Shown: in pieces, positions 13,837-32,540 of the stretch
Layout of the letters: every line of letters begins with the position of its first letter
How positions within the stretch are numbered: the first letter of the stretch is position 1
Source: Paramecium tetraurelia
Lineage: Eukaryota
NCBI GenBank assembly: GCA_000165425.1
Contig: CT868207.1
Span: forward strand, 682,001-746,000
Reading direction: 5' to 3'
Length of the DNA stretch: 64,000 nucleotides
The notes under the pieces: generated by a model
The model's input: only the letters and a program-made list of their open reading frames with translations
The model's database searches: none
What the model was told of the DNA's origin: nothing
Translations under genes and position numbers: made by a program

Positions 13837-16800
13837 TCAGGATTCACTTTGGCCATTGAATTCGTCTTCATCATTATTTTAATCTTCAATTTATAAAGCT
13901 CTTCTAAAAGGGAAAAAAATAGTTTCCTTGTCATCTAAGCATCTTTTTACGAACTTCTCCAAAGCGTTACAATCATTAGGATGTTTATTCTTAATATAAA
14001 TAATATAGTAGAGCATATGGTAGACACTATGTTCTAAATATATATGATAATGCCAGCCTTTTGATCCACTAAAAATAAAGAGGATATAATACTTTGTATC
14101 AATATCATTCTTATCAATACTACAAACAAAACATTTGCCTTCAATTTCTTTCACTAAGGCTTATCTCTCATCTCTCAATTCACCAAATGTATCTAAAATA
14201 ATACCAAAGATTATTTAAATGAACAAAATGTTGAATATTATGAAAAATGAGAAGTCAAAAAAGTATCTTCCCCAATATAATGTAGGATCTTCATAAGGTT
14301 CAGGATATGTTTTCATTGAATCACCTAAACCACTACGAAGACCAAAATTGATTGTGGATGTAACGGCTAAAATAAATGTTTATCCATAAACACCATCTTC
14401 ATCATTGAACATCCAGTCAAAGTCTGAAAATGCAATTATGGCATAAATTAGTAATCCAATAAACCCAAGAAAAGAGAATATGGCTAGATTTCTTCCATTC
14501 GATGTAATTGATTTTATAATATTCTAAAGATCCTCTGACCTCTTAATAATATCTAACAACAGTACTGCATAGATGTATGGATTAAAAAATGCATAAACTG
14601 TTAGTCCAAACATCCAAATCTATAATATTAAATTATGTTTACATTGTAAAAATTATCAAAGTCAAAAAATATAACAAGAATAAGCTTTTTGAAAGTGCTT
14701 TCGCTGACTTTTTATCCTTAAAATTCCTATTCAAAGTATCCAACAATACTATAATATTTCATTGTCAACCAAGCTATTGAAAATCCAGCTTCCTTTTTTA
14801 AGATCTGAACTCTTTTAGCATTAGTTTCACCTCTATTATATGTAATTGATATTGGATATCTTTCTATAGCACAGAAAAATACAATAATTAGATTTAATAC
14901 TAATTAAATAATGGTGATAATCTAAATTATTAGATAATGATTACATTATTAAGATAACTTACAAAGTTCTGTCCAGGTACTTTTGTTTCTGACTCAGGAG
15001 CTTCTTAACTGGATCCTAATTTACTATTGACAACTATGTCATGCATAAAGATCAAGAGAATTACTATAACCAAACAGAGTATGAAAGATACATCTTTTAA
15101 CAATCTCCAATAGACTGCTCCAAAATGCATTATAAAGCTATTGTTAATTTATTAAGAATGTCTCATTTAAACCTGATAAAAGTCAGCTTAATCAATTAAT
15201 CCTTACATTCTATCTTCATCTGTATCCCTTTTGATCTCATAAATTATATGCTATTTAATATTGGGAGTAACAAAATTGCAAATAAAGGGTTTTTAAAAGA
15301 AAACCTTTTGAAGTTCAGATTATTCATTTTGAATTTCAATTCTACCAGTAAATTATCTATAGAATTTAAAAAACTATTGTTTTCTAGTAAACTTAAAATT
15401 TTCATCATTTGAGATATCTTCAAAAATTTGTTTAAATTCATTTTGTTAGGGTTATCTTAATTGGTTACTTAATAGAGCACTTTGTTCTTCTTTATCATGA
15501 TTTTAATTTTTAACGAAGATTGGTACTACCTTTTAAGAAGAGGCAGTATTTTTTCTTTGTAAATCATCGTATAAGGGATCACTTAAATCAATCAAATCAT
15601 CCTATTCATCTTAATCTTCATCGAATCTAAAAATTTCTAATTAGGAATCTTTAGGAAAATGCTCCGATAATGTTAGACAAATAATAAAAATATTAAAACC
15701 TGTTTGCATTAGTAGGTTATCTTCATCAGTTCTTAACCCAAAATGGCATAGGTTATTGGAACAGTATTAATGCTGTCCAATTTTTGATTCATCACAAATA
15801 TTATCTAGGATGATATTTCTCTATTTAGGTTTAATACGATCTTGATATATGGATCTCGAGATTCTCATCAGAATTGTAATGTTCACAGTTTCGAGTATAA
15901 ATTTCAAACATTGTTTGTCATGTTTTCCTTGAGTTATCAACAATAATAATTTAATAAATGATTGAAGTGTCTAATATGAGTTGTATTTTCTTTCTTGAAA
16001 ATCAAGCTAATTTTTATTTAAATTTATAATAAGATCTTCTTCCTGATTTTATGATTTTAATAAATTTTCTTTAATTATATTTCTATTCTCTTCCTACAAT
16101 TATTTGAATGATAACAAATCTTCTTTCTATAAAATTTAGTTTAATAATGTAAATAATCTCGTATTTTTGCATAACTCTTTTTTATTTTCTTCAAATCCAG
16201 TAGAGAATTCAACTAAACTCTCCAAAGCTTGTCTGTAGATTTCTTACAGCTTATAAAATACACTCCATCCTTTTTCCAATAAATCTGCTAATAAACTGGC
16301 TACTTCATTAACAATATTAATATTGGCTTAGTATGAATCATCATCGTATTAACGAACTAAAAACTTTTAGAAATCTACATTGACATTTTCACACAACGCC
16401 TACAATAATTTTAGGACTTTCAAACACAGTATTTTATATTCAGTGTTATTACCTTCGCATAATTCTAGTTCTAATATCCTGGAATTAATATCAGTCAAGA
16501 AAAATCCTCGGAGAAACACAAAGAATTTTTATTTAATTACCTAATCTTATTTAAGTATATTATAGAACTTTTTCTAGACATAGTCGTTTCCATAATCCAA
16601 TAAATAAATTAACAATTATAATGCCTCGATTTTATGTTAATCATCATCAGAATCGTTCAGTATCTCTAATGCTAATATGTCCAAATCACTATCCACCATA
16701 GCATTTTAATATTTTATGAATATTTATTATTTCAACCTTATTTATTCTTTAGATTTTTCATCTTTTGCTTCTGTAAGTGAATCAATGTCATCTTGTGTGG

Positions 16801-19800
16801 GTCTTTTCAACAACAAGAATATTTTACATAATTTTATTAAATAGATTTCTCTGTTTAAAAATATGCCTTAACATTTTTCTAAAAATTCTTAAACATTGTC
16901 CTCGTTCAATATGTTTGTATTTTATTTCTCTAAAGTCTTGATTAGTAATTCTATTTAAATATCATCTGATATTAAATCTTCATTACCTTCTAATTAACCA
17001 CCAAGCTTTTTGTATTGTTTTCCAATTAGTTTGTGACTAGCTATTCCAAACTCTTATTTAAGATTCTCTAAGCCTTCTTATTATCTTAAATACGCTTGCA
17101 CTTACTGGTTTATTCCGATCTAAATAGTTTTAATCTCAAATAATTCCCTCATAGCTTATTTAAATAACTCCCAATCACTTATGACTCTATTTCTATTATT
17201 TACTTATTCTAATCTCTTAATTTATTCTATATTCACTTTAAAGATTTCATCAATATCGCTCTATTAGATGTATGTCTTATAAATGTTGCAAGTATCCAAT
17301 ATCTTCTATTATCTCTCTGATTCATTTGCCTTATTTTCGATGTACTCATTAAATTAATTAATATTCACTTTATATCTAATTAGATACACTTTAAAGTTTC
17401 TCCTAAAGAGATTTTCTATTCTCTAAACATTGTCTTATTCTTACAACTTTTTTTCTCCTGATTGATCCTCTTTCAAAGTATCAATCTTATCAAAAACTAA
17501 TTTAGTATTCTTGTCCTTTTGGAATCCTATTTTAAAATTCTGACCAAACTTAGTAATTTTTCTTTATGGAATGATTTCTTCGATTGAAGTTATCAATTCT
17601 CTATAATCATCCAAATCCAAATCTTCCTTTTTTACTCTAAAATCCCTTTCTAAAACATTAAAAATCTCCTTTATTTTTTAGACATTCTATTTAATGATTG
17701 CAAATTCATCAGACAAACTAGAATTCTCTGGATTTTCTAGATCAGTTCTATCCTTCATCTCATCGTATGTATAAACTAAAAAATGAATTATCCCATTTTT
17801 CCTTAAATATTTCCAGTATTCAGTTTAATCCCTTAAGATTCCTTAATCTTAAACAAATTTTGAATCAAATGAAAGCTTATTCTCGAAATAAGTCAGCTTC
17901 TATCTTTAAATTGAATCTCTCAAATCTCTTTAAATAACCTTCATATTTCTATCTTGATTAGCTAATTTAGACAGCCCTTCCAAATATTTACACACTTATT
18001 TCTAATCTAACTCTGGGATTATTACCCTGGACAGTATATCTCTAACTTCATCACTCTCTACAGTATCATTAACAAACTACCCTTCTCTTACTTAATTGAT
18101 ATATAATTCAAATAAGCATTATAAATATGCTCTCTTCACAATATATTCACCTTTAGGATTTAATAAAATGGTCTTTAATTATTCATACAGCAATATTCTT
18201 TGCAGCTCCTATATTCCTATTCTATAAAACTGACAACATTCAGTTAACAATGTTATTAATTCTGAGTGCAACTTCATTCTATGATAAAGCAAAGGGTCTT
18301 TCACATTCTCCTCCTCAGTAATCAATTCTGGAATCAGTATATCCTGATAATAGTTCACTGGGTCTAAGACTATTCTCAGAAAAGTATTCTTTAAGATCTT
18401 CGATATAATTAAATGTTTATTCAAGGGCATCTATTTTGCAGGTTTTTCATAGGATTTTGTCATGGATCTTAAAATCTTAAAATATTAAATCAAAGAGTAA
18501 TAAGCCACAGCATTTTCATGATTCCTTCTTTTTATAAATTTAATTTCTTCCTCTTCATCTCTTGTACTATAGACCTTAAGGTAAAACTCTTGACTTTATG
18601 TCAACTGATTTCCTAATTTGTAAATTCTTTCGAATATTTAGTTTATTAAATTATCATGTTGATTTTCTGGGATAGAAGATATAATTTTGATTGCTAATTT
18701 TGTTACCTTGATTGGAATATAGAACTTATCATCTGCTTATGGCTAAGACATCTAAATTACATCAAGAATCTTTTGTAAATACTCATTATTAGCTAAAATT
18801 GAAATATTAGTATCATTATCTATTATGAAATATTCCAGAAATAGAACGATTCTTTTATAGAAAAAAACTATCTCTTTTGAAGATATAATTGTTTCTGGAT
18901 CTACTAAAAATTTCAAAAATATTAGATGCACATTTGCATTCCTTACTATATTTTAAAAGGACTTTAAATACTATAAATCTTAAGAATTTGGTTTAAAAAA
19001 CATTTCAAATTATTCAATGATTCTATTTGAATATCCTTTTAATATATCAAAGGACGTAGCCCTTTTTTAATTTAAATTATCATCTTTCTAACTTTGAATA
19101 AATTTTAATGCTCTTTTTGATAATTGTATAGCTTCCTTAGGACTTATCATTTAAACACTGTTTGAATTTCCATTAATAATTGAAAAGTATCTCAATTCTT
19201 ATTAATTGTCAATGATTTCAACTTAACTGATTTCCTATATTGAATATTAAGGTGCATGAAAACTTTTAATTATTCTCTATAATAATTCCTCATTTAGTTT
19301 AGTTCTTTTCCCTGATGTCAATAAGCAAGTAAATAATAATCCACAAATGCTGTTGCCATCAGGTTCTTTGAAAACACTATAAATGGATTTGGATGAAATA
19401 GTCTTTGGTTTTTTAACTTACACTTCTTGATTTATCACTTCGTCAAATCCAAACTAATCCAAATCTTTGACACTTGGAGAACTTGGATTTGATTCATTCT
19501 ATTGGGAAGAACTGAATAGGAACTCTAGAATCTATAGATTTAATTTTAACTGTTCAAAGATTTTCAGAATCGATAAAGCTTCCAAATAGATTTGGGTTTT
19601 AATGATATCATCGTTACAATATTAATAAGTCCATATTAATAAATATAGAATCCAATTTCTTTAAAATTACATATATATCTTAGTTGATTGCTCCATTCTT
19701 TTGTAATCCTTATCTAGACCTCTGTATTTTGACTACTTTTTCTGATATAGTTATTCAGCAGAAGGTAAGAATGTAGAAACCCATATGTTATCATCAACTG

Positions 19801-31723: not shown

Positions 31724-32540
31724 ATGTCTTCTTCTAGTTCATCGAGGTCACGGTCACCTAGGAAGAATAAGAAAAGAGTATATGTGACAGGCTATTCTCT
31801 TAAAGAGGATCAACATGATATTAAAAAGTTATTCAAAAAATTTGGGAAAATTGAAGAATTTGCTTGGAAAGGAAAATATTGTTTCATTGTAGATATCATG
31901 AATTAAATTGTAGGAATTTAAGGATCCTGAAGATGCAGAGAAAGCTGTTAAAAAAATGAATAAGGAAGAAGTAAAAGGATCGGTGTTATAAGTTGAGATG
32001 GCTCGTGGAAATAAGCCGAGCAAAAATAATGGGCTTTGTTATTCTTGCGGTCACTCAGGACATTTGTAAGTTTTATATCGTCTTAACAATATATTATAGA
32101 ATACGATATATTTTATATCTATTCATTTACCTATTTTCATAGTGCTAAGAATTGCAGACATAGATCTTCATCTTCTAGTTCATCTAGCTCTAGCAGGTAA
32201 AGAATAGATAACAATAAATTATAGTGAGTCTAGAAAAAAACATAAAAAGAAACATAAAAAAAAGAAGAGTTCATCCAGTTCAGATTCCTCATCAAGTAGT
32301 TCATCGAGGGATAAGAAAAAGAAAGTGAATAAGAAGCGAAAGAGTTCTAAACAGAAATCAAAGTCCTCATCAAGAGGCTCTTCAAAAGACTCACACAATT
32401 CAGAGTCTTCCGGCTCGTACTTTTAAAGATGAATTCTGTTTAGCGTTGAAGGAGAAAAATAAGAAAGTAACAATATTAAAGATGACAAAAAACCTTAAGT
32501 TGAAGAGAATCAAATGAAGGGAGCTGATGGTAAGTAATGA
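31724..32540 (+). CDS. SR-like splicing factor, RRM + CCHC zinc knuckle (SRSF7/9G8, RSZ-type)
   Basis: RVYVTG, KYCFIEF, DAEKAV RRM; CYSCGHSGHFAKNC knuckle after splicing; S/R/K-rich tail; four introns. Confidence 0.9.

Follow-up and report, generated by a model that had tools for sequence, protein, structure and literature searches.

The window, that is, the whole stretch of DNA analysed here (64,000 nucleotides, positions 682,001 to 746,000 of contig CT868207.1, forward strand), is macronuclear DNA of Paramecium tetraurelia. It is AT-rich, with a GC content of 0.22-0.31 across its length, and was read in the ciliate code; one 2-kb bin (16001-18000) has a strong negative GC skew of -0.38 together with an AT skew of -0.14. 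The gene considered in this work, GSPATG/T00001514001, contains four introns (Table 1). Three of them are 25, 28 and 27 nt long, whereas intron 2 takes up 77 nt, and the coordinates that the initial annotation had given for this over-long intron were found to be correct. Intron 2 falls inside a zinc knuckle: two cysteines and the histidine are encoded in exon 2, the last cysteine lies four codons into exon 3, and the pattern C-x2-C-x4-H-x4-C arises exclusively upon removal of the 77 nt. In the unproductive forms of the transcript considered here a premature stop is reached, at 32326 (intron 2 retained), 32225 (inner AG) or 32430 (intron 4 retained), the normal one being at 32538. Judging from its letters, the pyrimidine-rich stretch upstream of the distal AG is a candidate for the branch and polypyrimidine region of the productive splice.

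Table 1 Features of the GSPATG/T00001514001 locus, in positions of the window
Feature	Position	Strand	Description
GSPATG/T00001514001 coding region	31724..32540	+	ciliate code 6, 5 exons, 219 aa, stop TGA 32538-32540
Intron 1	31889..31913	+	25 nt, GTA..TAG; at 31889 and 31914, loose read ends run on into the adjacent exon
Intron 2	32066..32142	+	77 nt, GTAAG..CATAG, phase 2, splits the CCHC knuckle
Inverted repeat, 5' arm TATATCGT	32074..32081	+	8 bp, judged to be chance
20-nt 'intron' of the deposited model	32080..32099	+	GTCTT..TATAG, in frame, breaks the knuckle; annotation artefact in our reading
Inner TATAG, possible proximal acceptor	32095..32099	+	would give a 34-nt intron
Inverted repeat, 3' arm ACGATATA	32103..32110	+	pairs with 32114-32124 in the minimum-energy fold
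Pyrimidine-rich stretch with TTTAC, upstream of the distal AG	32111..32137	+	21 of 27 letters are pyrimidines
Intron 3	32197..32224	+	28 nt; depth inside 0-3
TGA reached via the inner acceptor or intron 3 retention	32225..32227	+	first codon after intron 3, upstream of intron 4
TGA reached via intron 2 retention	32326..32328	+	183-aa product
Intron 4	32417..32443	+	27 nt, GTACTT..TTTAG, heavily retained in the sampled poly(A) RNA

The spliced product of 219 aa is identical to its Paramecium octaurelia orthologue (P0001) at 214 of 219 positions. When translated exon 1 was used as a query, 13 proteins were returned, without exception from Paramecium or Paramecium-like; the protein searches gave 13 and 7 relatives, and the paralogue B1 was in neither set. 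One of these relatives, P0009 from P. primaurelia (807 aa), consists of an upstream coiled-coil-like protein fused to the SR-like protein and is probably an annotation run-on. The Pfam RRM_1 domain scored 47.8 bits in P0001 and 47.4 bits in the old model of the window gene (P0002), at a cut-off of 20.7. The zf-CCHC domain reached 24.7 bits in P0003 and 19.6 bits in P0001, slightly below the cut-off of 20.8, and was not found by Pfam in P0002. Six orthologue models with correct splicing, 211-219 aa in length (P0001, P0003-5, P0014-15), have the knuckle.

SR proteins are defined by a C-terminal domain rich in consecutive RS/SR dipeptides. The tail of P0001 is not of this kind: its 107 residues include 38 serines, 25 lysines and 6 arginines, with just four RS/SR dipeptides, hence it is Ser/Lys-rich and 'SR-like' is the safer name. 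The initial annotation had called the gene an SR gene, which holds in the sense of an SR-type gene; of the SR features, the RRM and the CCHC knuckle are present while the RS-rich tail is not. The best match of the RRM among solved structures was SRSF6 (E 2.5e-8); SRSF7 was ranked after SRSF6, SRSF3 and SRSF1 with an E value of 3.1e-4, an order that reflects matches only and not a tree. Taken by its sequence, the protein is SR-like and has the RRM plus knuckle layout of SRSF7/RSZ, orthology with SRSF7 being unproven.

To follow splicing at the locus, three stranded poly(A) RNA runs of unspecified condition (X22, X23 and X24; raw 58-nt reads, of which 1043, 1083 and 896 were aligned) and one DNA run (X1, contigs) were aligned at a likeness threshold of 80%. 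At this threshold the reads of four paralogues are pooled, so that the share of each paralogue is a deduction from variant letters. The joint 32065>32143, which skips 77 nt with GT..AG ends, was found in three reads in each of the three RNA runs and is the sole joint among those listed, whereas no contig of the DNA run carries this skip. The skip is thus made in RNA, which identifies the 77 nt as an intron as opposed to an eliminated sequence or a deletion in the DNA. In addition, loose read ends at 32143 carried the end of exon 2 in 10 reads of X22 and 15 reads of X23, and 13 reads loose at 32065 in X24 carried the window's own exon 3 start with an agreement of 1.0. It had been claimed that the CCHC knuckle is complete only after removal of the sequence from GTAAG (32066) to CATAG (32142); the RNA junction and the residue pattern agree on this. 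Thus, the 77 nt are a genuine spliceosomal intron, which is excised as a whole with the distal AG as its acceptor.

The mean depth inside intron 2 was 0.16, 1.0 and 1.9 at 32083-32113 and 1.0, 4.1 and 4.3 at 32114-32144, as compared with approximately 16-21 reads of the B1+B2 type at 32057; retention and use of the inner AG are inseparable in these values. A minor part of the pool comes from the window's own copy, whose letter at 32033 is carried by 11 of 104, 9 of 93 and 10 of 113 reads. We read these small numbers as showing that the long intron of the B2 copy is well spliced in the sampled libraries, with at most about 10% unspliced. Intron 1 had depths of 3, 5 and 7 at 31905, as against about 100 in the exons. 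Upstream, read ends accumulate within the start codon, two bases in, at 31726 (18, 19 and 12 molecules), which reflects either an extremely short leader or paralogue reads clipped where the leaders diverge.

The four copies are visible by depth in the DNA contigs and match the four clade-B genes of the literature. At 32057, the letter of the B3/B4 type was found in 39 of 55, 29 of 48 and 38 of 59 reads. Reads of B3/B4 that run unspliced from exon 2 into the diverged intron, where they become loose at 32073, numbered 10 in X22 and 12 in X24; set against the 39 and 38 reads of the B3/B4 type in the same runs, this means that at least a quarter of the B3/B4 reads at the exon end are unspliced. 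The homologous long intron is likewise read through in the deposited models of B3 (P0006) and B4 (P0007). Intron 4 appears to behave in the opposite manner in the two pairs. Its depth at 32429 was 18, 39 and 28, as compared with 40, 56 and 41 window-type reads in exon 4 (32394) and 29-42 in exon 5, and it is seemingly not retained in B3/B4, for which the loose ends at 32410 agree at 0.99-1.0. Retention of intron 4 leads to the TGA at 32430-32432 and a protein that is 33 residues shorter. Intron 4 is thus retained in roughly half of the B1/B2 transcripts, and is the leaky intron of B2 in the sampled RNA.

Distant relatives were looked for in metagenomes. A scan with a degenerate motif gave 34 loci, 33 of which share the 10-residue motif alone, and one, L032 (GC 0.35), is a true relative; a pattern search for related loci gave 595 matches, none of them confirmed. 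Scans of prokaryote and viral contigs with two patterns had a single match, a contig of a Roseburia MAG (L035), which was taken for chance. The layout of L032 is identical to that of the window gene: its intron 1 is 31 nt long, and its knuckle intron measures 103 nt and stands at exactly the equal phase-2 position, where retention or use of an inner TATTAG likewise shifts the frame. The long introns of L032 and of the window do not align beyond AT-richness, and a C/T-rich tract precedes the distal AG in both. The L032 intron folds no better than its shuffles (z -0.69; 43 of 200). Just before its inner TATTAG, at 992-1016, a C-rich 10-mer within the pyrimidine tract is repeated in tandem and in direct orientation. 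The predicted protein P0012, a more distant one, ends at the matching codon, as a standard-code caller would end it at GTAA, which is a hint only. As far as one outgroup locus, L032, and the paralogues allow it to be read from sequence, over-length at the knuckle codon is conserved.

Introns of P. tetraurelia have a mean length of 25.1 bp, 99.9% of them lie within 20-35 bp, and their consensus is GTA..TAG (Saudemont et al., 2017, PMC5663052). According to the text of that paper, 'the splicing machinery only recognizes very short introns', 92-98% of the splice variants of this species are errors, and exon skipping is not observed in Paramecium. Its supplement describes 11 SRSF-like genes with one intron each that, in cells deficient in NMD, is retained or spliced at alternative sites at a level of 23-76%; these weak introns are strongly NMD-sensitive, are usually common to a clade, and are interpreted there as AS-NMD regulation. 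GSPATG00001514001 is listed among the 11 as B2, together with B1, B3 and B4 (Suppl. Text S2 and the Fig. S4 legend, PMC5663052). In P. bursaria, longer introns are reported in a preprint to be retained more, up to approximately 52 bp (10.1101/2024.08.09.607295).

Our principal hypothesis is that length makes the knuckle intron the weak, NMD-coupled intron of the family, and we consider the chances of its being right and of its being wrong to be evenly balanced. The data suggest such weakness strongly in the case of B3/B4, but weakly in that of the B2 copy. At about three times the length usual for the spliceosome, the intron would be spliced less well owing to its length itself and not to a hairpin. 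An intron left in place would shift the frame into a TGA, at 32326 upon retention or at 32225 if the inner AG were ever used, and the TGA-bearing mRNA would be lost by nonsense-mediated decay. Intron 2 may in this way act as a sensor, with the gene's own protein possibly feeding back on it.

A more far-reaching version of this hypothesis is offered tentatively, as one that we would not expect to hold in full. Length may be a dial: in a lineage with a spliceosome adapted to introns of 20-35 nt, an over-long intron of 77-103 nt would have been kept at a fixed knuckle codon from a time preceding the radiation of P. aurelia. It would sense the capacity for splicing, and after genome duplications the pairs of paralogues would have split the job, with the long intron leaky in B3/B4 and intron 4 leaky in B1/B2. 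The conserved block after the inner AG, with its lone GAY, would then be a putative site at which the gene's own protein binds its pre-mRNA.

The strongest competing explanation, which we hold to be rather unlikely though worth serious attention, states that the long intron is constitutive in B2 and over-long without any present regulatory use, the NMD valve being retention of the 27-nt intron 4 with the TGA at 32430. The depth at 32429 given above (18, 39 and 28) speaks for it when set against the 0.16-1.9 of the long intron, and so does the fact that intron 4 is correctly annotated in P0002. The latter fits a remark in the supplement of PMC5663052, by which 12 NMD-sensitive introns are unaffected by annotation errors, another gene being excepted; together with the mis-annotation of the long intron in P0002, P0006 and P0007, this remark hints that the published clade-B intron may be a different one. 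However, a constitutive long intron does not agree well with the over-length kept in L032 (103 nt, next to a neighbour of 31 nt), nor with B3/B4, in which the homologous intron is unspliced in at least a quarter of the reads. Moreover, the weak intron is usually clade-wide according to the supplement, yet B3/B4 apparently do without retention of intron 4, and in wild-type RNA NMD would mask transcripts that retain the long intron. We keep to length-dependent weakness of the knuckle intron as the preferred reading.

In yeast introns, a stem can loop out an AG or shorten the effective distance in an over-long intron. The initial annotation had proposed a switch that shares this idea: the hairpin 32074-32081/32103-32110 would hide the inner TATAG and shorten the effective intron, and its opening would lead to a 34-nt splice, a frameshift, a TGA and NMD, so that the gene could regulate itself. 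Several of the observations behind this proposal were confirmed. The repeat and the inner AG both exist, the arms being perfectly complementary and enclosing the AG, and the arithmetic is correct, as use of the inner TATAG adds 43 nt, shifts the frame and reaches the TGA at 32225-32227 upstream of intron 4. The 34-nt alternative has the consensus GTA..TAG ends and a normal length, which means that something must favour the distal site. In our decoding, the pseudo-translated paralogue models P0006 and P0007 both retain the codons for the inner TAG and the next four, and P0006 additionally retains a distal part of an equal 43 nt. The intron has a lone GAY triplet at 32105, shortly downstream of the inner AG, and for SRSF7 together with its knuckle the motif is described as GAY (PMC9022966).

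Nevertheless, gating by the hairpin is improbable. Of 2000 dinucleotide shuffles of the intron, 435 (22%) contain a perfect repeat of at least 8 bp, as do 291 of 3000 pieces of 77 nt drawn at random from the window, hence the repeat is within chance. The minimum free energy of the intron is -8.3 kcal/mol (z-score -1.48; 17 of 200 shuffles fold equally well) and is attained with other pairings; the proposed stem alone gives -4.8 kcal/mol and is missing from both the minimum-energy and the centroid folds. Its pair probability is 0.020-0.027, falling to 0.010-0.014 with flanks of 20 or 40 nt. Neither arm has a counterpart in L032, which is too distant for alignment, and the B3/B4 intron letters taken from reads diverge right after the first 8 bases, with the 5' arm not found among them. 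The structure-gated switch is accordingly given low odds, and the inverted repeat is most likely a product of chance. The yeast parallel is thus limited to the idea, as the Paramecium stem fails the tests of stability and chance.

The predicted use of the proximal acceptor did not find support either. No read with the joint 32065>32100 was among those listed for the three RNA runs with their 58-nt reads, and of the 13 loose-end reads at 32065 in X24 none continues with the intron letters that follow the inner acceptor. This absence is weak evidence and is compatible with low use, because the reads are short, forms of this kind are depleted by NMD, and the three short introns of 25, 28 and 27 nt were never reported as joints, so that a 34-nt skip might escape in the same way. 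In Tetrahymena, NMD is reported to be independent of exon junctions; accordingly, whether the TGA lies upstream of the last intron may not matter in ciliates.

The deposited protein P0002 (CAK75311 / A0CWZ4, GSPATT00001514001; 238 aa), held by both NCBI and UniProt, implies a 20-nt mini-intron at 32080-32099 and a 19-residue insert in place of a complete knuckle. Replacing the 77-nt intron with the 20-nt one reproduces P0002 letter for letter, which ties the window to the P. tetraurelia macronuclear genome and, at the same time, locates the error of the public model. Although the 20-nt model stays in frame, it is very improbable that it is right: no such joint or loose end is among those listed, the 77-nt skip was seen in three of three RNA runs, and the model loses a knuckle that the six correctly spliced orthologue models possess. 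The clade-B models compared were P0002, P0006 and P0007, B1 being left out, and the long intron is mis-modelled in all these three P. tetraurelia paralogues (A0CWZ4, A0DT12, A0CQI1), once with the in-frame mini-intron and twice by continuing in a shifted frame; the zinc knuckle was scored in none of the three. Finally, that the stretch is a remnant of a germline eliminated sequence (IES) or hosts a snoRNA, the latter having been named initially as a refuting possibility, has nothing but the unusual length in its favour and is hardly credible, since none of the contigs of run X1 lacks the stretch, Rfam gave four weak matches (E up to 10) all outside 32066-32142, and the intron contains no C or D box (no TGATGA, no CTGA).

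Splicing-coupled decay of GSPATG00001514001 is already in print (Saudemont et al., 2017, Genome Biol 18:208), where the identical gene is assigned to AS-NMD at the gene level. The passages of that paper considered here name no intron, length, zinc knuckle or hairpin for it, the per-intron values being given in Fig. S4. Accordingly, of the unproductive-splicing regulation put forward initially, the general part stands, as NMD-sensitive splicing of the gene is published and mis-splicing gives a TGA, and the hairpin gating and use of the inner acceptor find no support. A search of main texts gave no paper that mentions the gene identifiers, and we found no description of the long intron in the main-text literature, the per-intron values of Fig. 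S4 lying beyond this search. A paper on P. bursaria (NAR 2026) and one on ciliate introns (MBE 2026) contain nothing specific on GSPATG00001514001. What the present analysis adds to the published record is an exact model of the intron, the errors in the public models, the conservation of over-length and an apparent division of the leaky intron between the pairs of paralogues.

Paramecium is a textbook case of splice variation that is nearly all noise, and the SR-like genes are the published exception. Our results tie this exception to a concrete feature, an intron that is 3-4 times as long as normal and occupies a fixed position within the zinc knuckle; if the hypothesis is true, length is a simple cause of 'weak' splicing. 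The wrong public protein models of three paralogues have been flagged, and the unsupported hairpin account has been removed.

The proposed regulation may be compared with that of SR genes in animals and plants. In animals, a splice form bearing a premature termination codon (PTC) restrains splicing factors (Lareau 2007 and Ni 2007, via a citing paper), and the Paramecium gene resembles these genes, SRSF7 included, in that a splicing factor would be checked by a PTC-bearing form. However, the cassette exon on which animal poison exons are based is absent from the Paramecium gene. Among the human SR proteins, SRSF7 alone has a zinc knuckle (PMC9022966); unlike SRSF7, the Paramecium protein has a Ser/Lys-rich instead of an RS-rich tail, and its RRM is nearer to SRSF6.

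In the plant SR genes of the RS, RS2Z and SCL groups, with autoregulation in the case of atRSZ33, one intron is over-long and alternatively spliced, and its position is conserved (Kalyna 2006, PMC1636356). As in Paramecium, this intron is several-fold longer than normal; PTC-containing forms arise by an alternative 3' site or retention, as they would in the Paramecium gene, and the RS2Z proteins, like the Paramecium protein, combine an RRM with zinc knuckles (PMC1636356). The place and size of the intron differ: in plants it interrupts the RRM and spans 400-1100 nt, whereas in the Paramecium gene and in L032 it lies in the knuckle and has 77-103 nt. In plants, moreover, sequence around the alternative site is strongly conserved and feedback was proven by overexpression, both of which are only hypothetical for the Paramecium gene. 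Should length-dependent weakness of the knuckle intron hold, the gene would represent a small-scale ciliate counterpart of the 'long regulated intron' known from SR genes in plants and of the poison exons in those of animals.
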